Assembly (NCBI RefSeq): GCF_003944705.1
Contig: NZ_RWIS01000002.1
Location: 462,243-494,242 of the forward strand
Reading direction: 5' to 3'
Origin: Hymenobacter metallilatus
Lineage (GTDB): Bacteria > Bacteroidota > Bacteroidia > Cytophagales > Hymenobacteraceae
Length of the DNA: 32,000 nucleotides
The notes under the pieces were generated by a model. It was not told where the DNA came from and did no database searches. It saw only the letters and a program-made list of their open reading frames with translations. Within the stretch, counting starts at the first letter, position 1. Every line of letters starts with the position of its first letter. This document shows positions 4,227 through 30,475 of this stretch, piece after piece. A program made the position numbers and the translations under genes.

Positions 4227-4238
4227 TCGGTAATCACC

Positions 4239-4353
4239 AGAACGTCATGCTGAGCTTGCCGAAGCATCTCTACCGCTTCGTGCTCAAGAGTGAGTTAGCA
4301 AGAGTGAGTTAGCCAGAGGTAGAGATGCTTCGGCAAGCTCAGCATGACGTTCT
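4239..4353. repeat. complete V1 nested-palindrome element (36-nt arms, 43-nt spacer)
   Basis: Left arm 4239-4274 is agaacgtcatgctgagcttgccgaagcatctctacc. Right arm 4318-4353 is its exact reverse complement. The spacer holds a tandem 14-mer, aagagtgagttagc x2, at 4286-4313. Confidence 0.9.
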
Positions 4354-4375
4354 TTTTCCCATAACATCAGCACGC

Positions 4376-4407
4376 GAGATGCTTCGGCAAGCTGAGCATG
4401 ACGTTCT
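4376..4407. repeat. solo V1 right arm
   Basis: gagatgcttcggcaagctgagcatgacgttct has one mismatch to the consensus right arm. It lies 19 nt upstream of the argG ATG. Confidence 0.85.
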
Positions 4408-4425
4408 CATAATCTTCAGCACTCC

Positions 4426-5616: not shown

Positions 5617-6586
5617 GGCTGGCATCGTCGGCGGGGCCGGCTACACGGCGGGGGAGCTGCTGCGGATTCTGCTGCACCACGAGTTTGTGGAGCTGGGCGG
5701 CATCGTGAGTTCCTCCAACGCTGGCAACCCCATCCACCAAGTGCACGACGATCTGGTGGGCGAGACGGAGCTGCGTTTCACGGCTGAGCTGCAGGGCGAC
5801 GAGGACGTGGTGTTTCTGTGCCTGGGCCACGGCAACTCCAAGGCCTGGCTGACCCAGCACCCGATGCCCGAAACTACCCACGTCATCGACCTGAGCAACG
5901 ACTTCCGCCTGGAAGCCGACGCCGAGTTTGCGGGCCGGGAGTTTGTGTACGGGCTGCCGGAGCTGAACAAAAGCCAAATCCAGCAGGCCCAGAGCATTGC
6001 CAACCCCGGCTGCTTCGCCACGGCCATTCAGCTGGCGCTGCTGCCGCTGGCCCAGGCCGGCAAGCTCCAGAACGACGTGCACGTATCGGCCATTACGGGC
6101 AGCACGGGCGCGGGGCAGAGCCTCTCGGAAACGGTGCATTTCTCGTGGCGCACCAACAACGTGTCCATCTACAAGCCCTTCACGCACCAGCATCTGGGCG
6201 AGATAGGGGAGAGCCTGGCGCAGCTGCAGCACGCGCTGGACGTAGATATCCACTTCATCCCGTACCGCGGCAACTTCACCCGGGGCATCTTCGCCAGCGT
6301 CTACACGCCGTCGGATTTGACCCAGGACGAGGCCCGCGCGCTGTACCAGCAGTTCTACCAGGACGCCCCGTTTACCACGGTATCGGACAAGGAAGTACAT
6401 CTGAAGCAGGTTGTTAATACCAACAAGTGCCTGCTGCACGTGCAGAAACTCGGCAAGCAGTTGCTCATCACCTCGGTTATCGATAACCTGGTGAAAGGTG
6501 CTTCCGGCCAAGCCGTGCAGAACATGAACCTCATCTTCGCCCTGCCCGAAACGACGGGGCTAGGGTTGAAGGCCGGGCTGTTTTAG
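5606..6586 (+). CDS. argC: N-acyl-gamma-glutamyl-phosphate reductase
   Basis: 326 aa, with GIVGGAGYTAGELLRIL (NAD-binding) and the active-site segment ANPGCFAT. Overlaps the argG stop by 11 nt. Confidence 0.95.
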   Translation: MKIKAGIVGGAGYTAGELLRILLHHEFVELGGIVSSSNAGNPIHQVHDDLVGETELRFTAELQGDEDVVFLCLGHGNSKAWLTQHPMPETTHVIDLSNDFRLEADAEFAGREFVYGLPELNKSQIQQAQSIANPGCFATAIQLALLPLAQAGKLQNDVHVSAITGSTGAGQSLSETVHFSWRTNNVSIYKPFTHQHLGEIGESLAQLQHALDVDIHFIPYRGNFTRGIFASVYTPSDLTQDEARALYQQFYQDAPFTTVSDKEVHLKQVVNTNKCLLHVQKLGKQLLITSVIDNLVKGASGQAVQNMNLIFALPETTGLGLKAGLF

Positions 6587-6588
6587 GC

Positions 6589-6686
6589 AGAGCGTCATGC
6601 TGAGCTTGCCGAAGCATCTCTACCGCTTCGCAAGACCATTGATTACCCTCGGTAGAGATGCTTCGGCAAGCTCAGCATGACGTTCT
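6589..6686. repeat. complete V1 nested-palindrome element (36-nt arms, 26-nt spacer)
   Basis: Left arm 6589-6624 has one a>g change. Right arm 6651-6686 matches consensus. The element starts 3 nt after the argC stop. Confidence 0.9.
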
Positions 6687-6746
6687 GTTAGGATGTTCTG
6701 TAGGCTTGCTTCTAATTTCTAACCTCTCAGCTCTCACATCTATACC

Positions 6747-7886
6747 ATGGAGCTTTTCAACGTGTATCCGCTCGTCAACATCACGCCCGTGAAGGCGCTG
6801 GGGGCGAAACTCTGGGACGACAAAGGCCAGGAGTACCTGGATTTTTACGGCGGGCACGCCGTTATCAGCATCGGCCACAGCCACCCGCACTACGTGCAGC
6901 GCCTCACCGAGCAACTCGGCAACATCGGCTTCTACTCCAACTCGGTGCAGATTCCGATTCAACGGGAGCTGGCCGAGAAGCTGGGCCGGGTATCGGGCTA
7001 CGAGGATTACACGCTGTTTCTGTGCAACTCCGGGGCCGAGGCCAACGAGAATGCGCTGAAGCTGGCTTCCTTCCACACCGGGAAGAAGCGCGTCATAGCA
7101 TTCCGGGGCGCGTTCCACGGCCGCACCTCGGGCGCGGTAGCCGCCACCGACAACCCCAAAATCGTGGCGCCCTTCAACGCCGACCACCACATCAGCTTCC
7201 TGGAGTACGATCTGGCGGCGGTGGAGCAGGTGCTGCAGGGCGGCGACGTGTGCGGGGTCATCATCGAGCCCATCCAGGGCGTGGGCGGTATCATCATGCC
7301 TTCTGATGAATTCCTGCAAGGCTTGGCTGCGCTGACCAAACAATATGGCGCGCTGCTGCTGGCCGATGAGGTGCAGAGCGGTTACGGCCGCAGCGGCAGG
7401 TTCTTCGCCCACCAGCACGCCGGTATCCGGCCCGACGTTATTTCGGTGGCCAAGGGCATGGGCAACGGCTTCCCCATCGGCGGCATCCTGATTGCGCCCG
7501 AGCTGAAGGCGTCCTACGGGTTGCTGGGTACCACGTTTGGCGGCAACCACTTGGCCTGCGCTGCCGCGCTGGCCGTGCTGGAAGTTATTGAGCAGGAAAA
7601 CCTGGTGCAGCACGCCGCCGAGCTGGGCGACTACCTGCGCACGGAGTTGGAAGCCCACGCCGGGGCCGAGGAAATCCGGGGCCGGGGCCTGATGGTGGGC
7701 ATCAAGTACGATTTCCCCATCAAGGACCTGCGCGACCAGCTGCTCTCGGAGCACCACATCTTCGTGGGCAACGCCTCCGACCCCACGGTGCTGCGCCTGC
7801 TGCCCCCGCTGAATATCACCAAGGCCGAGGTAGACCGGTTTTTGCAGGCGCTGTACGCATTAATTCCGGCCGAAGTGAAAAAGTAA
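6747..7886 (+). CDS. argD: acyl-ornithine aminotransferase (class-III PLP aminotransferase)
   Basis: 379 aa, with NSGAEANE, ADEVQSGYGRSG and SVAKGMGNGFP (PLP lysine region). Confidence 0.9.
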   Translation: MELFNVYPLVNITPVKALGAKLWDDKGQEYLDFYGGHAVISIGHSHPHYVQRLTEQLGNIGFYSNSVQIPIQRELAEKLGRVSGYEDYTLFLCNSGAEANENALKLASFHTGKKRVIAFRGAFHGRTSGAVAATDNPKIVAPFNADHHISFLEYDLAAVEQVLQGGDVCGVIIEPIQGVGGIIMPSDEFLQGLAALTKQYGALLLADEVQSGYGRSGRFFAHQHAGIRPDVISVAKGMGNGFPIGGILIAPELKASYGLLGTTFGGNHLACAAALAVLEVIEQENLVQHAAELGDYLRTELEAHAGAEEIRGRGLMVGIKYDFPIKDLRDQLLSEHHIFVGNASDPTVLRLLPPLNITKAEVDRFLQALYALIPAEVKK

Positions 7887-8367: not shown

Positions 8368-9453
8368 GTGGAAAACGCTAAATCGGTAAAACTCGTCCTC
8401 GAAGACGGTACTGAAATCCAGGGCCAGTCGTTCGGCGCCTTCACCTCCGCCGCGGGCGAGGTGGTATTCAGCACGGCCATGACCGGCTACCCCGAAAACC
8501 TCACCGATCCGTCCTTCGCCGGGCAGATTCTGGTGCTGACTTACCCCATCGTGGGCAACTACGGCGTGCCGGGCGAGGAGCTGTACGAGTCGATTTCCAA
8601 GATTTTCGAGTCGGACAAGATTCACATTGCCGGCCTGGTAGTCAACTACTACTCCGAGGAGCACAGCCACTGGAACGCCGCCAAAAGCCTGGGCGACTGG
8701 CTGGCCGAGTACAACATCCCCGGCATCTGCGGCGTGGACACGCGCATGCTCACCAAGAAGCTGCGCGAGAAGGGCGCCATGCTCGGCAAGATTGTGGCCG
8801 AGCAGGACGTGCCCCTGCACGACCCCAACCTGGAAAACCTGGTGGCCCAGGTGAGCCCCCAGGGCGTGCAGCACTACGGCACGGGCCAGCACAAAATAGT
8901 GCTGGTAGACTGCGGCACCAAAACCAACATCATCCGCTGCTTCCTGGAGCGCGACGTGGAGCTGATCCGGGTGCCCTGGGACTACGACTTCACCCAGCTC
9001 GACTACGACGGCCTGTTCCTGAGCAACGGCCCCGGCGACCCGAAAATGTGCGTGCCCACCATCGAGCACCTGCAAAAGGCGCTGGAGCAGGACAAGCCCA
9101 TCTTCGGCATCTGCCTGGGTTCCCAGCTCATGGGCCTGGCCGCCGGCGGCGACACGTTCAAGCTCAAGTACGGGCACCGCAGCCACAACCAGCCCGTCAA
9201 GCTCACCGGCACCCAGCGCAGCTACATCACCAGCCAGAACCACGGCTTCGCGGTGGACACGGCCACGCTGCCCGCCGAGTGGGACATGCTGTTCGAAAAC
9301 CTCAACGACGGCACCTGCGAAGGCATCAAGCACAAAACCAAGCCCTTCTTCTCCACCCAGTTCCACCCCGAAGCCGCCGGCGGCCCCCAGGACACGGAGT
9401 TTCTGTTTGATGATTTCTTGAAAGCGGTGGTGGAGTATAAAGCCTCGAAGTAA
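8368..9453 (+). CDS. carA: carbamoyl-phosphate synthase small (glutaminase) subunit
   Basis: CarA similarity starts at ...ENAKSVKLVLEDGTEIQGQSFGA. I place the start at the in-frame GTG at 8368 (361 aa). The GATase triad region GICLGSQL is present. The 151 upstream in-frame codots of the track ORF (7915-8367) are Pro/Ser-rich and run through a repeat. Confidence 0.85.
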   Translation: MENAKSVKLVLEDGTEIQGQSFGAFTSAAGEVVFSTAMTGYPENLTDPSFAGQILVLTYPIVGNYGVPGEELYESISKIFESDKIHIAGLVVNYYSEEHSHWNAAKSLGDWLAEYNIPGICGVDTRMLTKKLREKGAMLGKIVAEQDVPLHDPNLENLVAQVSPQGVQHYGTGQHKIVLVDCGTKTNIIRCFLERDVELIRVPWDYDFTQLDYDGLFLSNGPGDPKMCVPTIEHLQKALEQDKPIFGICLGSQLMGLAAGGDTFKLKYGHRSHNQPVKLTGTQRSYITSQNHGFAVDTATLPAEWDMLFENLNDGTCEGIKHKTKPFFSTQFHPEAAGGPQDTEFLFDDFLKAVVEYKASK

Positions 9454-9455
9454 TC

Positions 9456-9821
9456 ATGAGTACTTGCAAGTTTCGCTTACTCATACCTACGCTAGCGCTG
9501 ATATTTTTGAATGCTGGCTGTAGGCAAGAAGCAAAATTTGATAAGGACAAGTGGTGCTCTATGGGTGATATAGGAAGCTTCCCGTATCGTGAGCAAATGG
9601 TCGATGATTTGGTTACGCATCATCAACTTAAGGGTCTCACTTACCATCAGCTTCTTGATTCACTGGGTGAGCCGTCAAACTATGGCGAGTCTGACGGCAC
9701 ACTTCGGTATCTAATCATGGAGGATTTTGAATCAGATATTGACCCGGTACATGGCAAAACGCTTGACCTGACATTGGGGCTTGATTCTGTTGTAACTGCT
9801 TACAAAGTCACCAAGTGGTAA
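9456..9821 (+). CDS. low-GC small lipoprotein-like protein (possibly a BamE/SmpA_OmlA-like fold)
   Basis: 121 aa. The ATG is 2 nt after the carA stop. Signal peptide ends ...LIFLNAGC. A 60-nt sample I hand-counted is about 40% G+C, against about 60% in carB. Confidence 0.6.
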   Translation: MSTCKFRLLIPTLALIFLNAGCRQEAKFDKDKWCSMGDIGSFPYREQMVDDLVTHHQLKGLTYHQLLDSLGEPSNYGESDGTLRYLIMEDFESDIDPVHGKTLDLTLGLDSVVTAYKVTKW

Positions 9822-9828
9822 GCACCCC

Positions 9829-9874
9829 AGAACGTCATGCTAAGTTTGCCGAATCATCTCTACCATTTCGTTGG
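9829..9874. repeat. degenerate V1 left arm (half of a split palindrome)
   Basis: agaacgtcatgctAagTttgccgaaTcatctctaccAtttcgttgg. All four differences from consensus are G/C to A/T. Its partner is at 10291-10335. Confidence 0.85.
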
Positions 9875-9915
9875 CGAATAAGATTGTAATACTCAAACGT
9901 ACTAGTATACATACC

Positions 9916-10305
9916 ATGCAGTTGAATGGAAAATCATTAAAGAAATGGCTTTTGCTTTTAGTGGCAGGTATAGCCTTTTATTTCTCTTTTGATTTCCTAG
10001 ACGACTTCTTAGATAAGCAGATGTTGGGTGACCACCCAGAAGTCATTCTTGCGGCCAAGTATGGTGCCAAGACTTCTCCGAGAATACTTAGCCACACGGG
10101 AGAAATATTTTCTGAGGAATACAAAATGAATACGCTGGATTCCAAGCAAGACTCGCTTGAACTTGATATCAAGTTAGAAGGCAAGAAGGCAACCGCCATT
10201 ATTAATACGCGTGCAGTGAAGCAAGTATCTGGTATATGGAACATCTACCGTAGCGACACCACATTCACTGAACAGGCACCACAGCTTGGCCCAACGAAGC
10301 GGTAG
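9916..10305 (+). CDS. low-GC hypothetical membrane-anchored protein
   Basis: The track ORF starts at a TTG at 9871, inside the repeat. The first ATG, at 9916 (MQLNGKSLKKWLLLLVAGIAFYFSF...), gives 129 aa with one N-terminal TM helix. The TAG stop lies within the V1 right arm (ggTAGag). No family recognised. Confidence 0.5.
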   Translation: MQLNGKSLKKWLLLLVAGIAFYFSFDFLDDFLDKQMLGDHPEVILAAKYGAKTSPRILSHTGEIFSEEYKMNTLDSKQDSLELDIKLEGKKATAIINTRAVKQVSGIWNIYRSDTTFTEQAPQLGPTKR

Positions 10306-10335
10306 AGATGCTTCGGCAAGCTCAGCATGACGTTC
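10291..10335. repeat. V1 right arm (half of a split palindrome)
   Basis: ccaacgaagcggtagagatgcttcggcaagctcagcatgacgttc. Consensus sequence, complementary to 9829-9874 except at the four degenerate positions. Confidence 0.9.
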
Positions 10336-10379
10336 AGATAAATCCTTTGCCTACGTTCTTTTTGAACATAACCCCCAGA

Positions 10380-13300
10380 ATGGAAAAACCACAGAAAGTT
10401 CTCATCCTCGGTTCCGGCGCCCTCAAAATTGGGGAGGCCGGTGAGTTCGACTACTCCGGTTCGCAGGCCCTCAAGGCGCTGAAAGAGGAAGGCATCCGCA
10501 CCATCCTCATCAACCCCAACATTGCCACCGTGCAGACGTCGGACGACATTGCCGACGACGTGTACTTCCTGCCCGTGACGCCCTACTTCGTGGAGGAAGT
10601 CATCAAGAAGGAGCAGCCCGACGGCATCCTGGTGGCCTTCGGCGGGCAGACGGCCCTGAACTGCGCCGTGGCCCTGTACCGCGCCGGCGTGTTCGAGAAG
10701 TACAACGTGCGCGTGCTCGGCACGCCCGTGCAGAGCATCATCGACACCGAGGACCGCGACATCTTCAAGGAAAAGCTCGACCAGATCGGCGTGCTCACGG
10801 CCCGCAGCGAAGCCGTAACCACGATGGAGGACGCGCTGGCGGCCGCCGAGCGGATTGGCTTCCCCATCATCGTGCGCGCCGCCTTTGCGCTGGGCGGCCT
10901 GGGCAGCGGCTTCGCCAACAACATGGACGAGCTGCGTACCCTGGCCCAGAAATCCTTCTCGACCTCCGACCAGATTCTGGTGGAAGAGTCCTTGAAGGGC
11001 TGGAAAGAGGTGGAGTACGAGGTGGTGCGCGACCAGTTCGACAACTGCATCACGGTCTGCAACATGGAGAACTTCGACCCCATCGGTATCCACACCGGGG
11101 AGAGCATCGTGGTGGCCCCGTCGCAGACGCTGAGCAACCGCGAGTACCACAAGCTGCGCAGCATCGGCATCAAGACCATCCGCCACTTGGGCATCGTGGG
11201 CGAGTGCAACATTCAGTACGCCCTCGACCCGCACTCGGAGGAATACCGCGTGATTGAGGTGAATGCCCGTTTGTCGCGCTCCTCGGCCCTGGCTTCCAAG
11301 GCTACGGGCTACCCGCTGGCCTTCGTGGCCGCCAAGCTGAGCCTGGGCTACTCCCTGGCCGAGCTGAAAAACAGCGTGACGCAGACCACCTCGGCCTTCT
11401 TCGAGCCCTCGCTCGACTACCTGGTGGTAAAGCTGCCGCGCTGGGATTTGAGCAAGTTTGCGGGTGTGCAGCGCCAGATCGGCTCGGCCATGAAGAGCGT
11501 GGGCGAGGTGATGGCCATCGGCAAAACCTTCGAGGAAGCCGTGCAGAAGGGCCTGCGCATGCTCGACACCGGCCGGCGCGGCTTCGTAGCCAACAAGCCC
11601 GAGCCCATCGACCTCGCGGACCTCGACCGGCTGCTGAGCGAACCGAACGAGGAGCGCATCTTCGCCATCAACGAGGCATTCCAGGCCGGCTACGACGTGG
11701 AGCGCGTGTACGAGCTGACGCGCATCGACCGGTGGTTTTTGCAGCGCCTCTACGGTATCTACCAGCTGGGCCTGCAGCTCGGCGAGAAGCGCCAGCAGGG
11801 TGGCCTCGATGCCCTCGACACCGACCTGCTGCGCCAGGCCAAGAAAGCGGGCTTCTCGGACCAGCAGCTGGCCGTGCAGCTGCTCGGGCCGGCCGAGGTG
11901 AAGGCCAACGAAATGCTGGTGCGCGCCCGCCGCAAGGCCCTGGGCGTGCTGCCGGTGGTCAAGCAAATCGACACGCTGGCGGCCGAATTCCCGGCCCAGA
12001 CCAACTACCTCTACCTCACCTACCACGGCACCGAAAACGACCTGGAGCCGGAAACCGACAAGTCGGTGGTGGTGCTGGGCTCGGGCGTGTACCGCATCGG
12101 CTCGTCGGTGGAGTTTGACTGGTGCGGCGTAAACGCGGCCCAGACGGTGAACGAGGAGGGCTACAAGTCCATCATCATCAACTACAACCCCGAAACCGTA
12201 AGCACCGACTACGACGTGTCGGACCGCCTGTACTTCGAGGAATTGAGCTACGAGCGGGTGATGGACATCCTGGACTTTGAGGCGCCGCAGGGCGTAATTC
12301 TGAGCACTGGCGGGCAGATTCCGAACAACATTGCCACCCGCCTCGAAGCCGCCGGCGCGCCCATCCTGGGCACCGCCGCCGCCCGCATCGACGAGGCCGA
12401 AAACCGCCACAAGTTCAGCAGCATCATGGACGAGCTGGGCATTGCCCAACCGCGCTGGAGCGAGCTGACTACGATGGAGGCCATCTACGACTTCGTGAAG
12501 CAGGTGGGCTTCCCGGTGCTGATCCGGCCGAGCTACGTGCTGTCGGGCGCGGCCATGAACGTGGTGTCGAACCCGCAGGAGCTGGAAGAGTACCTGAAGC
12601 TGGCCGTGGAGGTCAGCGCCGAGTACCCGGTGGTGGTGTCGGAGTTCATCCAGGAAGCTAAGGAAATCGAGCTGGACGCGGTGGCCGACAAGGGCGAAAT
12701 CGTGTCGTACGCCATATCGGAGCACGTCGAGTTTGCCGGCGTGCACTCCGGCGACGCCACCATGTACTACCCGCCCCAGCGCGTGTACGTGGGCACGGTA
12801 CGCAAGCTCAAGGTCATTGCCGAGAAGATTGCCCGGCGCTTCGAAATCAGCGGGCCGTTCAACATCCAGTTCCTGGAGAAAAACGGCGCCATCCGCGTCA
12901 TCGAGTGCAACCTGCGCGCCTCGCGTAGCTTCCCCTTCGTGAGCAAGGTATCGGGCCACAACCTGATCAAAAAGGCCACGAAGGTGCTGCTGGGCCAGCA
13001 CGTGGAGCGCGACGCGAGCGAGCTGGTGTACGACCTGCCCTTCGTGGGCGTGAAGGCCTCGCAGTTCTCCTTTACCCGCCTGCAGGGCGCCGACCCGGTG
13101 CTGCGCGTGGACATGACCAGCACCGGCGAAGTGGGCTGCCTGGGCGACACGGCCGAGGAAGCGCTGCTGAAGTCCTTGCTGTCGGTGGGTTACCGCATTC
13201 CGGAGAAGACGGTGCTGATGTCCAGCGGCCCGCTGCTCTCCAAGGTGGCCCTGCTCAGCGCCGCCAAGCTGCTGGTGCAGAAGGATTACACCATTTACGC

Positions 13301-13631
13301 CACCCACGGCACGCACAGCTTCCTGGCCGAAAACGGCGTGGCCAGCACCCTGGTCTACTGGCCCGACGAGCTGCAGGAGCCCAACGCCCTGACCTACCTG
13401 CGCGAGCGGAAAATCGACCTGGTCATCAACATCCCCAAGAACCTGACCAAGGGCGAGCTGGACAACGACTACAAAATCCGCCGCACCGCCGTCGACTTCA
13501 ACATCCCGCTCATCACCAACGCCCGCCTGGCCAAAGCCTTCATCAAGGCCTTCACCACGCTGAAGCTGCAGGATCTGAGCATCAAGAGCTGGAAGGAGTT
13601 CAAGGCGGAAGCCGCGCCGGTAGAGGCGTAG
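10380..13631 (+). CDS. carB: carbamoyl-phosphate synthase large subunit
   Basis: 1083 aa from the ATG at 10380 (MEKPQKVLILGSGALKIGEAGEFDYSGSQA...), with duplicated ATP-grasp halves. The 24 extra N-terminal codons in the track ORF are read-through of the V1 arm (MLRQAQHDV...). Confidence 0.95.
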   Translation: MEKPQKVLILGSGALKIGEAGEFDYSGSQALKALKEEGIRTILINPNIATVQTSDDIADDVYFLPVTPYFVEEVIKKEQPDGILVAFGGQTALNCAVALYRAGVFEKYNVRVLGTPVQSIIDTEDRDIFKEKLDQIGVLTARSEAVTTMEDALAAAERIGFPIIVRAAFALGGLGSGFANNMDELRTLAQKSFSTSDQILVEESLKGWKEVEYEVVRDQFDNCITVCNMENFDPIGIHTGESIVVAPSQTLSNREYHKLRSIGIKTIRHLGIVGECNIQYALDPHSEEYRVIEVNARLSRSSALASKATGYPLAFVAAKLSLGYSLAELKNSVTQTTSAFFEPSLDYLVVKLPRWDLSKFAGVQRQIGSAMKSVGEVMAIGKTFEEAVQKGLRMLDTGRRGFVANKPEPIDLADLDRLLSEPNEERIFAINEAFQAGYDVERVYELTRIDRWFLQRLYGIYQLGLQLGEKRQQGGLDALDTDLLRQAKKAGFSDQQLAVQLLGPAEVKANEMLVRARRKALGVLPVVKQIDTLAAEFPAQTNYLYLTYHGTENDLEPETDKSVVVLGSGVYRIGSSVEFDWCGVNAAQTVNEEGYKSIIINYNPETVSTDYDVSDRLYFEELSYERVMDILDFEAPQGVILSTGGQIPNNIATRLEAAGAPILGTAAARIDEAENRHKFSSIMDELGIAQPRWSELTTMEAIYDFVKQVGFPVLIRPSYVLSGAAMNVVSNPQELEEYLKLAVEVSAEYPVVVSEFIQEAKEIELDAVADKGEIVSYAISEHVEFAGVHSGDATMYYPPQRVYVGTVRKLKVIAEKIARRFEISGPFNIQFLEKNGAIRVIECNLRASRSFPFVSKVSGHNLIKKATKVLLGQHVERDASELVYDLPFVGVKASQFSFTRLQGADPVLRVDMTSTGEVGCLGDTAEEALLKSLLSVGYRIPEKTVLMSSGPLLSKVALLSAAKLLVQKDYTIYATHGTHSFLAENGVASTLVYWPDELQEPNALTYLRERKIDLVINIPKNLTKGELDNDYKIRRTAVDFNIPLITNARLAKAFIKAFTTLKLQDLSIKSWKEFKAEAAPVEA

Positions 13632-13646
13632 TCAGCGGAGTTCATA

Positions 13647-13691
13647 AGAACGTCATGCTGAGCTTGTCGAAGCATCTCTACCGCTTCGTTG
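13647..13691. repeat. V1 left arm carrying a private T variant (outer half of a split palindrome)
   Basis: agaacgtcatgctgagcttgTcgaagcatctctaccgcttcgttg. Its exact partner is at 14644-14684. Confidence 0.9.
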
Positions 13692-13720
13692 TTCGGCATC
13701 GGCGCTGATTGGACAAAGCA

Positions 13721-13823
13721 AGAACGTCATGCTGAGCGAAGCTGAAGCATCTCTACTGATAGTAACTCCTCTCGTGAGGACGACCCCGGTAGAGATGCTT
13801 CAACAAGCTCAGCATGACGTTCT
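13721..13823. repeat. complete variant V1 element nested inside the split palindrome
   Basis: The left arm, 13721-13756, has loop variant gagcGAAGCtga, which contains GCGAAGC at 13736-13742. The right arm, 13788-13823, is ggtagagatgcttcaacaagctcagcatgacgttct. The arms pair except at the mini-loop. Confidence 0.85.
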
Positions 13824-13854
13824 GATTTTCGGCTGTTCTGCGTAACGTAGCCGC

Positions 13855-14145
13855 ATGTACGTCTACATCCTGACTAACCCGACCCAAACTGTGCTCTACA
13901 TCGGCGTCACCAACGACTTGGCCCGCCGCCTCTATGAGCACAGCCAGGGCCGCGGTGACGCGGGCAAGTTCACCGGACGGTACCAAGCGGATTTGCTGGT
14001 GTACTTCGAGCAGTGCCCGGATGCTACGCAGGCTATTGCGCGGGAAAAGCAACTGAAAGGCTGGACGCGGCAGAAGAAGGACGCGCTGATTGCGGCGTTT
14101 AATCCGACGTGGCAGGCTATTGATTTGCAGACGTGGGCGGGGTAA
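13855..14145 (+). CDS. small stand-alone GIY-YIG (URI-domain) nuclease family protein
   Basis: 96 aa: MYVYILTNPTQTVLYIGVTNDLARRLYEH...REKQLKGW. The YILTN...LYIGVTN...R..EH...E pattern is typical of short COG2827-type GIY-YIG proteins. G+C is host-like. Confidence 0.85.
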   Translation: MYVYILTNPTQTVLYIGVTNDLARRLYEHSQGRGDAGKFTGRYQADLLVYFEQCPDATQAIAREKQLKGWTRQKKDALIAAFNPTWQAIDLQTWAG

Positions 14146-14156
14146 ACTAAATACTT

Positions 14157-14642
14157 ATGAATAAGCTATCTGAGCTAAATGACCTTTGGAAAAAGGCAAA
14201 GATTAGAACAGTTGACACTGCAACTGAACAGCAGGTTAGTGAGTTTGAAGCAACTCATAATCTGATTATTCCTCATGATTTACGAGGTTATTTCGTAGCT
14301 GTGAACGGTACCGACAGGTTGCCGGATAATGAGTTTTATACTTTCTGTACGCTTGAGCAATTTCAACCAATCACCAAAGTTTTAGATGCTTGGAAAAACG
14401 GTATACCGAGGCATAGCGACGTGCTTGAGAAAATAGGCAGCCCTCAAAATTGCTTTGTATTTGCGGATTATAGCATCTACCTCTTTGCTTACGCTATCAG
14501 GCTGTACCCTACAGAATCTGCTCAAAATGAAGTTTATGCAATCTGCGGTGGAGAATACAGAATTATAGCCAAGTCGTTTTCCGAATTCATCGACCTGTAT
14601 CTGCAGCAGGCGGATGAACTTACCTTTTGTCTCATCGCCTGA
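14157..14642 (+). CDS. SMI1/KNR4 (SUKH-1 superfamily) protein, immunity-protein-like, low GC
   Basis: 161 aa. The N-terminal segment (...QVSEFEATHNLIIPHDLRGYFVAVNG) and the ...FADY...SFSEFIDLYL segments resemble the SUKH pattern. A 60-nt sample I hand-counted is about 35% G+C. Confidence 0.65.
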   Translation: MNKLSELNDLWKKAKIRTVDTATEQQVSEFEATHNLIIPHDLRGYFVAVNGTDRLPDNEFYTFCTLEQFQPITKVLDAWKNGIPRHSDVLEKIGSPQNCFVFADYSIYLFAYAIRLYPTESAQNEVYAICGGEYRIIAKSFSEFIDLYLQQADELTFCLIA

Positions 14643-14643
14643 G

Positions 14644-14684
14644 CAACGAAGCGGTAGAGATGCTTCGACAAGCTCAGCATGACG
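14644..14684. repeat. V1 right arm carrying the matching private A variant (outer half of a split palindrome)
   Basis: caacgaagcggtagagatgcttcgAcaagctcagcatgacg is the exact reverse complement of 13651-13691. The terminal ttct reappears at 14710-14713 after a 25-nt insertion. Confidence 0.9.
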
Positions 14685-14733
14685 GCCTGACGGCCTTTTC
14701 CGTCTGCCGTTCTGAAATACCGTAGAACACCCC

Positions 14734-15678
14734 ATGAAAAAATTCACCTCGTTCGCCGACGTACCCGACTACCGCGCCCTGCTGCAACAGGCGCTGGAGA
14801 TTAAGCAGAACCCCTTCGGCTACCAGCACGTCGGGCGTAATAAAACCGTTGGACTCATCTTCTTCAACCCCAGCCTGCGCACCCGACTTAGCTCGGTGAA
14901 GGCGGCCTACAACCTGGGCGCGCAGGCCTGGGTGCTCAACGCCGGTGCCGACTCCTGGACCCTGGAAATGGCCGATGGCGCGGTGATGAACGGCGGCACC
15001 CAGGAGCACATCAAGGACGCTATTGCGGTGATGAGCCAGTACTGCGACGTGCTGGGCGTGCGTACCTTCCCCACGCTCAAGGACCGGGAGGCCGACTACA
15101 GCGAAGAAGTGTTCCGGAAAATCATGCAGTACGCCACGGTGCCCGTCATCAGCCTGGAAAGCGCCACGCTGCATCCGCTGCAAAGCTTCGCCGACCTGAT
15201 TACGGTGGCCGAAACCAAGCGGAAGGAACGGGTGAAAGTGGTGCTCACCTGGGCTCCGCACGTGCGCGCTTTGCCCCAGTGCGTGCCCAACTCGTTCTGC
15301 GACTGGTTCTCGGAAATCGACTGGGTAGATTTCGTCATTACCCACCCCGAAGGCTACGAGCTGGACCCCAAGTTTACGAAAGGGGCCCGCATCGAGTACG
15401 ACCAGCAGAAGGCCCTGGCAGGCGCCGACTACGTGCAGGCCAAGAACTGGAGCAGCTACCAGCAGTATGGCCAGGTGCTCCAGAACGACCCCGCCTGGAT
15501 GCTCACACCCGAGCACATGGCCCTTACCAACGACGCCAAATTCCTGCACTGCCTGCCCGTACGCCGCAACGTGGAGGTATCGGATGCGGTGCTGGATGCG
15601 CCCGGCTCACTCATCATTCAGGAAGCCGGCAACCGCACCATTTCCATGCAGACGGTGCTGCACGAATTACTGAAGTAA
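14734..15678 (+). CDS. argF': N-acyl-L-ornithine carbamoyltransferase (acetyl- or succinyl-ornithine type)
   Basis: 314 aa. It has FNPSLRTR instead of the canonical STRTR carbamoyl-phosphate motif, plus HCLP. This is the hallmark of the AOTCase/SOTCase clade. Confidence 0.85.
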   Translation: MKKFTSFADVPDYRALLQQALEIKQNPFGYQHVGRNKTVGLIFFNPSLRTRLSSVKAAYNLGAQAWVLNAGADSWTLEMADGAVMNGGTQEHIKDAIAVMSQYCDVLGVRTFPTLKDREADYSEEVFRKIMQYATVPVISLESATLHPLQSFADLITVAETKRKERVKVVLTWAPHVRALPQCVPNSFCDWFSEIDWVDFVITHPEGYELDPKFTKGARIEYDQQKALAGADYVQAKNWSSYQQYGQVLQNDPAWMLTPEHMALTNDAKFLHCLPVRRNVEVSDAVLDAPGSLIIQEAGNRTISMQTVLHELLK

Positions 15679-15836: not shown

Positions 15837-16142
15837 ATGAAAAAGCTACTTGCCATTGCCGCCTTGCTCGTAACTGGTGTTTCGGCCGCCAACGCCCAAA
15901 CGACCAATACGTCAACCACGACTACCACCACCCAGCCTACCCAAACAACGACGACGACACCGGCCACGGTGCCAATGCAGGGCCAGGGCACCATCAACCA
16001 GACTACGACTACACCGGCCACCACAACCACGGTAGAAACCCAGTCGACAACTACGGATACGTACAAGCCCGCCACTACAACGGGGGCTGACGTGAAGGCC
16101 AAAGACAAAAAGAGAAAATCGAAAATGAAGGCTGATAACTAA
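15837..16142 (+). CDS. small secreted Thr-rich low-complexity protein with a Lys-rich tail
   Basis: 101 aa. Signal peptide MKKLLAIAALLVTGVSAANAQ, then T/P/Q repeats, ending KAKDKKRKSKMKADN. A terminator follows the gene. Confidence 0.6.
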   Translation: MKKLLAIAALLVTGVSAANAQTTNTSTTTTTTQPTQTTTTTPATVPMQGQGTINQTTTTPATTTTVETQSTTTDTYKPATTTGADVKAKDKKRKSKMKADN

Positions 16143-18327: not shown

Positions 18328-18454
18328 GAATGTGGCGTAAGCTTTAGCTTGCGCCGTACACCGGCCGTAAAAGGGGCAGCATCACCGCGCTCTGCCGATT
18401 TTTACGCCCGGTTCTCGTTTATGCACGGCGCAAGCTAAAGCTTACGCCACATTC
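18328..18454. repeat. perfect 30-bp inverted repeat filling the EamA/rarA divergent intergenic region
   Basis: gaatgtggcgtaagctttagcttgcgccgt (18328-18357) and acggcgcaagctaaagcttacgccacattc (18425-18454). Each arm lies 7 nt from a start codon and contains an internal palindrome, gcgtaagct-tt-agcttgcgc. Confidence 0.9.
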
Positions 18455-19800: not shown

Positions 19801-20042
19801 AGGGTATGAGGGTGTGGGGGTGTGGGGGTGTGGGGGTAGGAGTTATTAGCCCGTCATTCCGAGCTTGCCGAGGAATCTCGCGTGCTGACGTTGCACTGGT
19901 GACTGTTACGCAGAATGCAGCGGAGCGGAGTGATGCATCTCGCGTGCAGTGCTGATCCACCTCATTGCAACATTAGCCCGTCATTCCTCGGCAAGCTCGG
20001 AATGACGGGCTAATAACTCCTACCCCCGCACCCTCATACCCT
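19801..20042. repeat. composite V2 nested-palindrome element with octamer expansion
   Basis: The left arm, 19801-19876, includes aggagttattagcccgtcattccgagcttgccgaggaat. The right arm, 19983-20042, is its reverse complement and extends to acccccgcaccctcataccct. The left arm has extra gtgtgggg units at 19810-19836. Confidence 0.9.
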
Positions 20043-30394: not shown

Positions 30395-30475
30395 CTGTCA
30401 TTCCGAGCGAAGCGAGGAATCTGGGTTATACATCAGGAGTTAGACCCAGATTCCTCGCTTCGCTCGGAATGACAG
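30395..30475. repeat. V3 nested-palindrome element (perfect 32-bp arms, 17-nt loop) between convergent genes
   Basis: ctgtcattccgagcgaagcgaggaatctgggt (30395-30426) and acccagattcctcgcttcgctcggaatgacag (30444-30475). GCGAAGC lies at 30407-30413. Confidence 0.9.

Follow-up and report, generated by a model that had tools for sequence, protein, structure and literature searches.

The SsnA protein of Neisseria meningitidis is a 94-amino acid, single-domain GIY-YIG protein of the CDD family cd10448 (Chenal et al., Nat Commun 2025, PMC11893778). The hairpin repeat NTS (CGTCATTCCCGCGMAVGCGGGAATCYRG) is bound by SsnA exclusively as single-stranded DNA (ssDNA), with the cut being made a few nucleotides (nt) upstream of the repeat, and the mutant proteins Y6A, Y17A and E64A are inactive (PMC11893778). 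Within the NTS, the C residue directly following the palindrome is most critical for binding, and the three bases preceding the palindrome are critical for cutting; cleavage of duplex DNA was not observed for the characterised homologues (PMC11893778). Ssn homologues occur across phyla and have 'Ssn-related motifs' (SRM) of their own on either side, in the layout NTS-ssnA-NTS; an SRM was reported nearby for 71% of the homologues, four Ssn homologues were confirmed biochemically, and in Neisseria the Ssn system lowers the transformation by NTS-bearing DNA (PMC11893778). Another closely related group is formed by the repetitive extragenic palindromic (REP) elements with a CGTC tag, a class that includes dRS3 of Neisseria and elements of Bacteroidetes (Di Nocera et al., BMC Genomics 2013, PMC3733652). 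In this survey the CGTC REPs were judged to be without a dedicated enzyme (PMC3733652), a place that is now taken by Ssn. Here, we describe a 32,000-nt stretch of Hymenobacter metallilatus DNA (contig NZ_RWIS01000002.1, positions 462,243 to 494,242; referred to as the window) that contains a gene, named ssn in the following, at positions 13855-14145 of the forward strand. Judged by sequence comparison, its product very probably belongs to the Ssn family and would thus be of a kind already described in 2025. A literature search found no follow-up papers on SsnA and nothing relevant that links GIY-YIG to COG2827, REPIN, miniature inverted-repeat transposable elements (MITE) or palindromic repeats.

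The ssn gene encodes a 96-amino acid protein, residues 1-74 of which match the Pfam GIY-YIG domain PF01541 (E=2e-17) as the sole convincing Pfam match, whereas a borderline and overlapping match (E=2.9e-4) was obtained with T5orf172, a related GIY-YIG-type family. Only 22 residues follow the GIY-YIG domain, and a DNA-binding extension was absent according to Pfam and to an AlphaFold model. This model, calculated with 57 diverse homologues as input, consists of one compact beta-beta-alpha-alpha-beta-alpha-alpha domain (pLDDT 90, pTM 0.82), which agrees with the catalytic-domain-only open reading frame (ORF) noticed in a preliminary description of this DNA. The Foldseek matches of the model were GIY-YIG domains throughout, the nearest being the UPF0213 protein BH0048, UvrC-N, Slx1 and I-TevI; UPF0213 and the window protein share a common fold (TM 0.55). 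A structure of Ssn was not found in the PDB, which contains just the distant UPF0213 proteins, and NCBIfam holds no model that is specific for the 96-amino acid protein. A total of 3245 homologues of ssn was detected, and the best 120 of them have a length of about 96 amino acids (91-112, most of them exactly 96), share 77-96% identity with the window protein and originate nearly always from Hymenobacter where the organism is named. At E<=1e-10 the Ssn family comprises 2239 clusters at 50% identity, and 1-3 ssn paralogues are present per Hymenobacter genome. The dN/dS values relative to the window copy range from 0.01 to 0.1 with a median of 0.068, demonstrating that ssn is a real gene under strong purifying selection.

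The assignment to the Ssn family is based on a comparison with the gonococcal counterpart. A tblastn search of a plasmid collection (7.3 Gb) with the window protein yielded a match in a N. gonorrhoeae chromosome (E=1e-11), which lies below the value of E<1e-10 that had been applied for SsnA homology (PMC11893778). The matching ORF of 94 codons specifies the residues Y6, Y17 and E64 and is located amid 11 canonical NTS copies within 3.2 kb; on these sequence features it can be regarded as the gonococcal ssnA gene. The respective locus L080 (NZ_CP119142.1) stands for 2.17-Mb N. gonorrhoeae chromosomes that are filed as plasmids in PLSDB, and its ssnA frame displays ATT/ATA as expected first codon, without ATG, GTG or TTG. 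The window protein and gonococcal SsnA are both single-domain GIY-YIG proteins with comparable lengths and share 44% identity (BLASTP, E=2e-22, 70 bits), with Y4, Y15 and E64 of the window protein being aligned with the catalytic residues Y6, Y17 and E64 of SsnA. The relatives from the UPF0213 group are far weaker (BH0048, 25 bits, E=1.3e-4; EF2693, 21 bits). Accordingly, the UPF0213/YhbQ/Slx1-like proteins (cd10456) are not the closest sequence relatives, since SsnA is closer. The residues Y15, R25, H29 and E64 are invariant in the 57 diverse homologues, Y4 is kept in at least 90% of them, and all five are invariant in a 12-sequence alignment including SsnA; they represent the predicted catalytic residues of the window protein. 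A homing signature of the I-TevI type was not detected (TIGR01453, 17 bits versus a cut-off of 56), and the C-terminal DNA-binding module of such enzymes, which are carried by introns or free-standing in phages, is absent.

The genetic organization of the locus likewise resembles that of ssnA, which has inverted copies of a dispersed hairpin repeat on both sides. The ssn gene lies in the context of a chromosomal arg/carB operon, with carB (10308/10380-13631) as left neighbour and, on the right, an ORF of the SMI1/KNR4 (SUKH) type (14157-14642) followed by an ornithine carbamoyltransferase (OTC)-like gene (14734-15678). The list of inverted repeats revealed a split palindrome, the arms of which (13651-13694 and 14641-14684) are 98% complementary and 946 nt apart and enclose a complete hairpin, ssn and the SUKH ORF. 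The inner hairpin (13720-13824) folds with -37.6 kcal/mol (z = -9.6) and ends 31 nt before the ATG of ssn. Both the position of the gene within a split palindrome and its start 31 nt past a complete hairpin, as given in the preliminary description, were confirmed by these data. By means of nhmmer, the outer left arm was located at 13645..13691 on the forward strand (E=8.5e-17) with the SRM-type sequence AGAA-CGTC-ATGCT-GAGCTTGTCGA-AGCAT-C-TCTACCGCTTCGTTG, and the outer right arm, also of the SRM type and closing the split palindrome, at 14644..14690 on the reverse strand (E=5.4e-15). The inner hairpin is composed of a forward left arm with the loop variant GAGCGAAGCTGA (13720..13760, E=1.6e-7) and a reverse right arm that stops 31 nt short of the ssn ATG (13783..13826, E=1.6e-14). 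The 28-nt core of the repeat is present in 10 copies in the window (<=3 mismatches), compared with 0 in 100 shuffles; the hairpin repeat family in the window is real. At gathering thresholds, Rfam gave no match in the window. Several of the features by which an Ssn system is recognized are found together in the window, namely a single domain, homology to SsnA, the catalytic residues, inverted flanking repeats and a repeat of the composition HGTC-palindrome-C.

The association of ssn with the arms was analyzed in 79 ssn loci of Hymenobacter that were obtained by scanning one genome per species, with a profile made from the window's arms for arm detection. Clustering of the flanks assigned these loci to 21 distinct genomic contexts. 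The density of arms was 13 per kb at a distance of up to 50 nt from ssn, 3.4 per kb at 50-100 nt and 0.13 per kb beyond 2 kb. An arm was present within 100 nt of ssn in 75 of the 79 loci, and within 50 nt past the ssn stop codon in 60 of them, there almost always in reverse orientation. In 63 loci, ssn is preceded by a forward arm and followed by a reverse one, and 20 of the 21 contexts have an adjacent arm. About half of the 79 loci are located at carB, where ssn is found immediately before carB in some cases and in the gap between carB and the OTC gene in others, swapping between the two hairpin sites on either side of carB depending on the species; some of the signal is thus due to inheritance. 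The evidence that the adjacency of ssn and arms exceeds chance is nevertheless overwhelming, with an approximately 100-fold local enrichment, and the statistical link between repeat and gene that had been proposed for examination is present in Hymenobacter. Within the sampled flanks, the majority of the detected arms are not neighbours of ssn, and the density of 0.13 arms per kb in these flanks implies several hundred arm sites per genome.

The arms have a length of about 45 nt and the consensus AGAA-CGTC-ATGCT-GAGCTTGCCGA-AGCAT-C-TCTACC (GCTTCGTTG). In a set of 318 arms, the CGTCAT segment is conserved to 97-100%, the C residue following the stem to 99%, and GAGC and CGAAGCAT to at least 93%, whereas three positions of the loop are conserved to just 55-61%. 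This conservation profile mirrors the mutational map of SsnA (PMC11893778). The stem occurs in the variants ATGCT/AGCAT, ATGCC/GGCAT, ATGTC/GACAT and ATTCC/GGAAT, all of which preserve complementarity. Arms of the ATGCT type flank ssn genes whose products share 77% identity or more with the window copy, whereas the other stems flank paralogues with 71-76% identity, those with the ATTCC/GGAAT stem in other genomes being 71-73% identical. The clade of an Ssn paralogue and the stem sequence of the arms beside its gene vary together. A homologue on a Spirosoma plasmid (54% identical) likewise has its own dimer, TGTCATCCCGAGGAACGAGGGATC, just upstream. The suggestion made in the preliminary description, which saw in the stand-alone GIY-YIG protein a candidate cognate nuclease of the hairpins, is supported by the adjacency in 20 of 21 contexts, the covariation of clade and stem, and the homology to SsnA.

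Two elements with the ATTCC/GGAAT stem are present in the window, and a matching Ssn paralogue was not found in the window. The first element (19846..20010, within the region 19818-20041) has extended, G-rich arms of 59 nt (GGGTGTGGGGGTGTGGGGG...), and the second one (30395..30475) contains a perfect 32-nt palindrome, TGTCATTCCGAGCGAAGCGAGGAATCTGG, that matches the NTS consensus of Neisseria at 20 of 28 positions. When read from the sequence, the main difference from the NTS is that tandem G.A pairs, which surround a GCGAAGC mini-hairpin, take the place of two C-G pairs. Another arm variant, CGTCATGCAGAGCGCAGCGAAGCATCTC, is also abundant, with 55 copies; its fifth stem pair is an A.A mismatch, and it was seen in the loci L010, L028, L035, L044, L049, L070, L074 and others.

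The repeats of both genera share a [C/T]GTC tag, the letters AT at the beginning of the stem, a C residue following the stem and the presence of an own repeat variant for each paralogue. The stem of the Hymenobacter arms consists of five Watson-Crick pairs plus tandem G.A pairs, whereas that of the NTS has eight G/C-rich pairs, and the Hymenobacter arms are almost always joined to long palindromic dimers. Moreover, the palindromes of Hymenobacter often hold extra genes of low GC content, and the host is a soil or environmental species of the Bacteroidota. The CGTC-tagged REP elements resemble the arms in the terminal CGTC/TGTC tag, the AT-initial stem, the short unpaired tail and the prevalence of head-to-head dimers; they differ in the tail, which is CCA instead of the CTC/CTG of Hymenobacter, and in the stem, which is broken by G.A pairs in Hymenobacter.

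Several observations weigh against the assignment of the Hymenobacter locus to the Ssn systems. The published degenerate SRM string HGTCWYN(0-2)YYVSBRHN(0-5)WNVSBRGN(0-2)RNCYNB matches the canonical NTS but none of three Hymenobacter arm variants; this string is a search heuristic and not a definition, and such loci would consequently have been scored as SRM-less. A single arm with its 5-bp Watson-Crick stem folds insignificantly (-6 kcal/mol, z = -1.4; ViennaRNA, DNA), compared with -12 kcal/mol and z = -4.1 for the NTS under the same folding. The weak fold may be due to the G.A pairs and the GCGAAGC-type mini-hairpin, which are not rewarded by nearest-neighbour parameters. The pairing of arm with arm is far stronger than the fold of a single arm and would bury the CGTC tag, and the arm just downstream of ssn is oriented opposite to its counterpart in N. 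gonorrhoeae. To our knowledge, no Ssn member from the Bacteroidota has been characterised biochemically, and we know of no work that establishes natural transformation for Hymenobacter.

By analogy with its characterised relatives, the Ssn protein of Hymenobacter would be a small Mg2+-dependent, site-specific endonuclease that acts on ssDNA only and cuts at its own arms. A local arm would be recognized once the DNA becomes single-stranded, by means of the CGTC tag, the ATGCT/AGCAT stem closed by G.A/G-C pairs and the C residue just 3' of the stem, and the strand that bears the forward arm would be nicked, at a distance of a few nt 5' of CGTC. The ssn gene itself is housed in a palindrome of two arms (repeat-ssn-repeat), as in its Neisseria relative. 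By analogy, ssDNA that enters the cell or becomes exposed would be fragmented at the arms, which would modulate recombination. Cutting of ssDNA at several hundred dispersed arms might shape the recombination of incoming or replicating ssDNA, and recombination between arms could explain the gain and loss of ssn and of other small genes in the hairpin loops. The action on cruciforms, or of the Slx1 or I-TevI type, that was considered in the preliminary description does not agree with the properties of the Ssn family, which works on single-stranded hairpin DNA only (PMC11893778).

The split palindrome of the window also holds the SUKH ORF, a low-GC gene on which the preliminary description was silent. 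This gene (14157..14642, forward strand) encodes an immunity-type protein of the SUKH-1 (SMI1/KNR4) family with 161 amino acids (Pfam PF09346, E=1.5e-8), has a GC content of about 41% and is located past the ssn stop codon and ahead of the outer right arm; its deduced product shares 100% identity with a protein of H. metallilatus. A second split palindrome is located directly upstream of carB (9828..10338, with a forward arm at 9828-9873 and a reverse arm at 10292-10338), at a site that is occupied by ssn in many other species, and contains a low-GC ORF at about 9916-10305. Together with an ORF at 9456-9821, these are the small low-GC ORFs (0.40-0.47) in or beside palindromes of the window, the latter two encoding a small membrane protein and a product that resembles a lipoprotein. 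In all of the 22 pairs of a forward and a reverse arm that lack ssn and have an interior of 289-518 nt, this interior has a GC content of 0.38-0.48, compared with 0.56-0.64 in all nine stretches (632-1446 nt) between a reverse arm and the following forward arm and with a genome average of 0.59. A low-GC ORF is located between the forward arm and ssn in 27 loci, and between ssn and the reverse arm in 10 loci including the SUKH ORF of the window. Altogether, the 79 loci contain 54 cargo ORFs from 29 families, with SMI1/KNR4, Imm50, Barstar and DUF7668 as recognizable ones. All but one of the 54 ORFs are co-directional with ssn, which may merely reflect the polarity of the operon.

The sites themselves differ between species. 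At 6586-6747, 9453-10380 and 13631-14734, the orthologous positions are represented by abutting genes, bare hairpins or cargo-filled palindromes, depending on the species. The gap between carB and the OTC gene measures 98-140 nt in L019, L031, L035 and L044 and contains one bare hairpin, i.e. an empty site in comparison with the filled one. In five other species in all, a bare hairpin takes the orthologous position of the window's outer arms. H. piscis is the closest relative within the set, its ssn being 99% identical at the amino acid level with a dS value of 0.41; at the same place it contains ssn, an arm, an unrelated ORF of 122 amino acids and another arm. Three cargo families were found at different hairpin sites. 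The junction orthologous to 6586-6747 also harbours other families of palindromes, CCCCACCCCCAGCCCC...GGGGCTGGAGGTGGGG and CCCAGGGCTGAAGCCCTGGG... (L039, 2718-2859; L005, 6729-6864; L016, 6926-7036), indicating that several hairpin families colonise the junctions of this operon. A target-site duplication was not readable from the comparison of empty and filled junctions.

The arrays follow the order '+arm, (gene, -arm)n', so that the predicted Ssn cuts on the bottom strand would release exactly units of a gene and an arm as ssDNA. It is conceivable, yet rather doubtful, that the Ssn palindromes of Hymenobacter serve as points of capture and exchange for small, low-GC, co-directional cassettes, many of them of the immunity type. 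If true, this would be an integron-like cassette system on ssDNA that is run by a GIY-YIG nuclease and host recombination. The arrays can be likened to integron cassettes and to the recombinase-associated orphan-immunity arrays (rAID) of Bacteroidales, which also consist of small, promoter-less, co-directional ORFs of foreign composition, several of them of the immunity type, that are bounded by a hairpin repeat recognized in ssDNA. In contrast, an integrase or tyrosine recombinase is absent here, the Hymenobacter arrays comprise just one or two genes, and similar cargo also occurs without arms. The strict rule that low-GC cargo needs arms was rejected, since in L017 and L037 no arms accompany the SUKH homologues that are present in the corresponding gap. 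More distant SUKH relatives are found in arm-free immunity islands of low-GC organisms, which, like the occurrence of other palindrome families at the sites in question, weakens the link between cargo and arms.

Besides the role of a nuclease that cuts ssDNA at its own repeats, other roles of ssn have to be considered. The enzyme might be a domesticated mobiliser that copies the hairpins around the genome in the manner of REPIN and RAYT, the hairpins being non-autonomous derivatives. This possibility is unlikely on the whole but deserves more weight than the other alternatives. The order repeat-gene-repeat corresponds to REP-RAYT-REP, a likeness remarked in the discussion of PMC11893778. Both systems have dispersed intergenic hairpin doublets, a hairpin substrate in ssDNA and a conserved gene that is mostly inherited vertically; in Hymenobacter, ssn is largely syntenic near carB, as would be expected for a domesticated gene. 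The presence or absence of hairpins at orthologous intergenic sites, including the bare hairpin in place of the window's outer arms, would also be consistent with mobilisation, but unrelated palindromes are found at the same sites, and presence or absence alone does not implicate Ssn. RAYT proteins are derived from IS200/IS605 and are HUH enzymes of the Y1 type with a covalent tyrosine intermediate, whereas Ssn is a hydrolytic GIY-YIG enzyme. The HUH motif, the catalytic tyrosine and the Y1_Tnp fold of RAYT are absent from the window protein, for which Pfam and Foldseek indicated GIY-YIG only. No covalent intermediate is formed when GIY-YIG nucleases hydrolyse DNA, and strand transfer would therefore need other factors. 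Evidence of strand transfer by Ssn is lacking, the junctions provided no target-site signature, and transposition has not been reported for any Ssn (PMC11893778). With respect to the RAYT analogy drawn in the preliminary description, the repeat-gene-repeat architecture has thus been substantiated, whereas mobilisation of the repeats by the enzyme is hypothetical.

It is less probable that ssn is a selfish gene of the homing type, which cuts hairpins lacking ssn and enters the loops of these as a copy through recombinational repair, with the repeats as targets rather than products. The occurrence of an empty hairpin and of a hairpin with ssn at one and the same site, the alternation of ssn between the carB-flanking sites, the 21 genomic contexts and the paralogues of the gene would all fit such a behaviour. 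On the other hand, a homing gene is difficult to reconcile with the very strong purifying selection and the long retention next to carB, with the lack of the DNA-binding extension that is usual in GIY-YIG homing enzymes, with duplex DNA being left uncut by the characterised homologues, and with the majority of arms in the sampled flanks that are not beside ssn. A toxin-immunity pair, in which the nuclease is the toxin and the neighbouring SUKH protein its immunity factor, is very improbable. GIY-YIG (URI) domains occur as toxin modules, and ORFs of the SUKH, Imm50 and Barstar type adjoin ssn, but at least 29 unrelated cargo families are found beside a near-invariant ssn, many ssn loci are free of cargo, the same cargo families occur in ssn-less hairpins or without any arms, and Ssn has no secretion or delivery domain; given this heterogeneous and optional cargo, a toxin-immunity relation of ssn to SUKH was rejected. 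Least probable of all is a generic structure-specific repair nuclease of the UPF0213/YhbQ or Slx1-like type in an incidental position among terminators or REP-like repeats, since the closest solved structures (UPF0213 BH0048, the UvrC N-terminal domain and Slx1) and the location of the hairpins between operon genes, as would be expected of terminators or RNA-stability elements, are outweighed by the 100-fold enrichment in fixed orientation in 20 of 21 contexts, the covariation of clade and stem, and the score of 70 bits for SsnA versus 25 bits for UPF0213.

The identification of ssn as a probable Ssn gene extends the Ssn/SRM system to Hymenobacter, a genus of the Bacteroidota, with a repeat variant that is missed by the published search motif. 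As the Hymenobacter arms fall outside this motif, the reported proportion of homologues with an SRM nearby is probably too low. The covarying pairs of enzyme and hairpin (ATGCT, ATGCC, ATGTC and ATTCC) could be used to dissect or re-engineer the specificity for ssDNA. Moreover, the series of empty, hairpin-containing and cargo-filled sites at orthologous positions provides a handle on whether Ssn systems drive the spread of repeats and the turnover of cassettes, a question left by the discoverers of the system.

Further members of the repeat family in the window are a bare hairpin at 6588..6688, composed of a forward arm (6588-6631) and a reverse arm (6646-6688), and a cluster of three arms at 4237..4409, of which the first one (4237-4281) is in forward orientation and the other two (4311-4354 and 4365-4409) in reverse orientation. 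Arms of this family tend to give spurious extensions of ORFs, for instance with the sequence MLSLSKHLYRF, which may account for the many family members annotated with 110-200 amino acids. The carB ORF as called mechanically starts within a reverse arm (10308; MLRQAQHDV...), and the true start of carB is probably the codon of MEKPQKVLILG at about 10380. An unrelated 33-nt inverted repeat is located at 18328-18454 between two divergent genes; it is 97% complementary with a spacer of 61 nt, and copies of this palindrome were not found in the 83 loci fetched. Finally, a lower-GC stretch behind the OTC-like gene contains an ORF with a signal peptide (15837-16142), the deduced protein of which is extremely rich in threonine (TTNTSTTTTTTQPTQTTTTT...).

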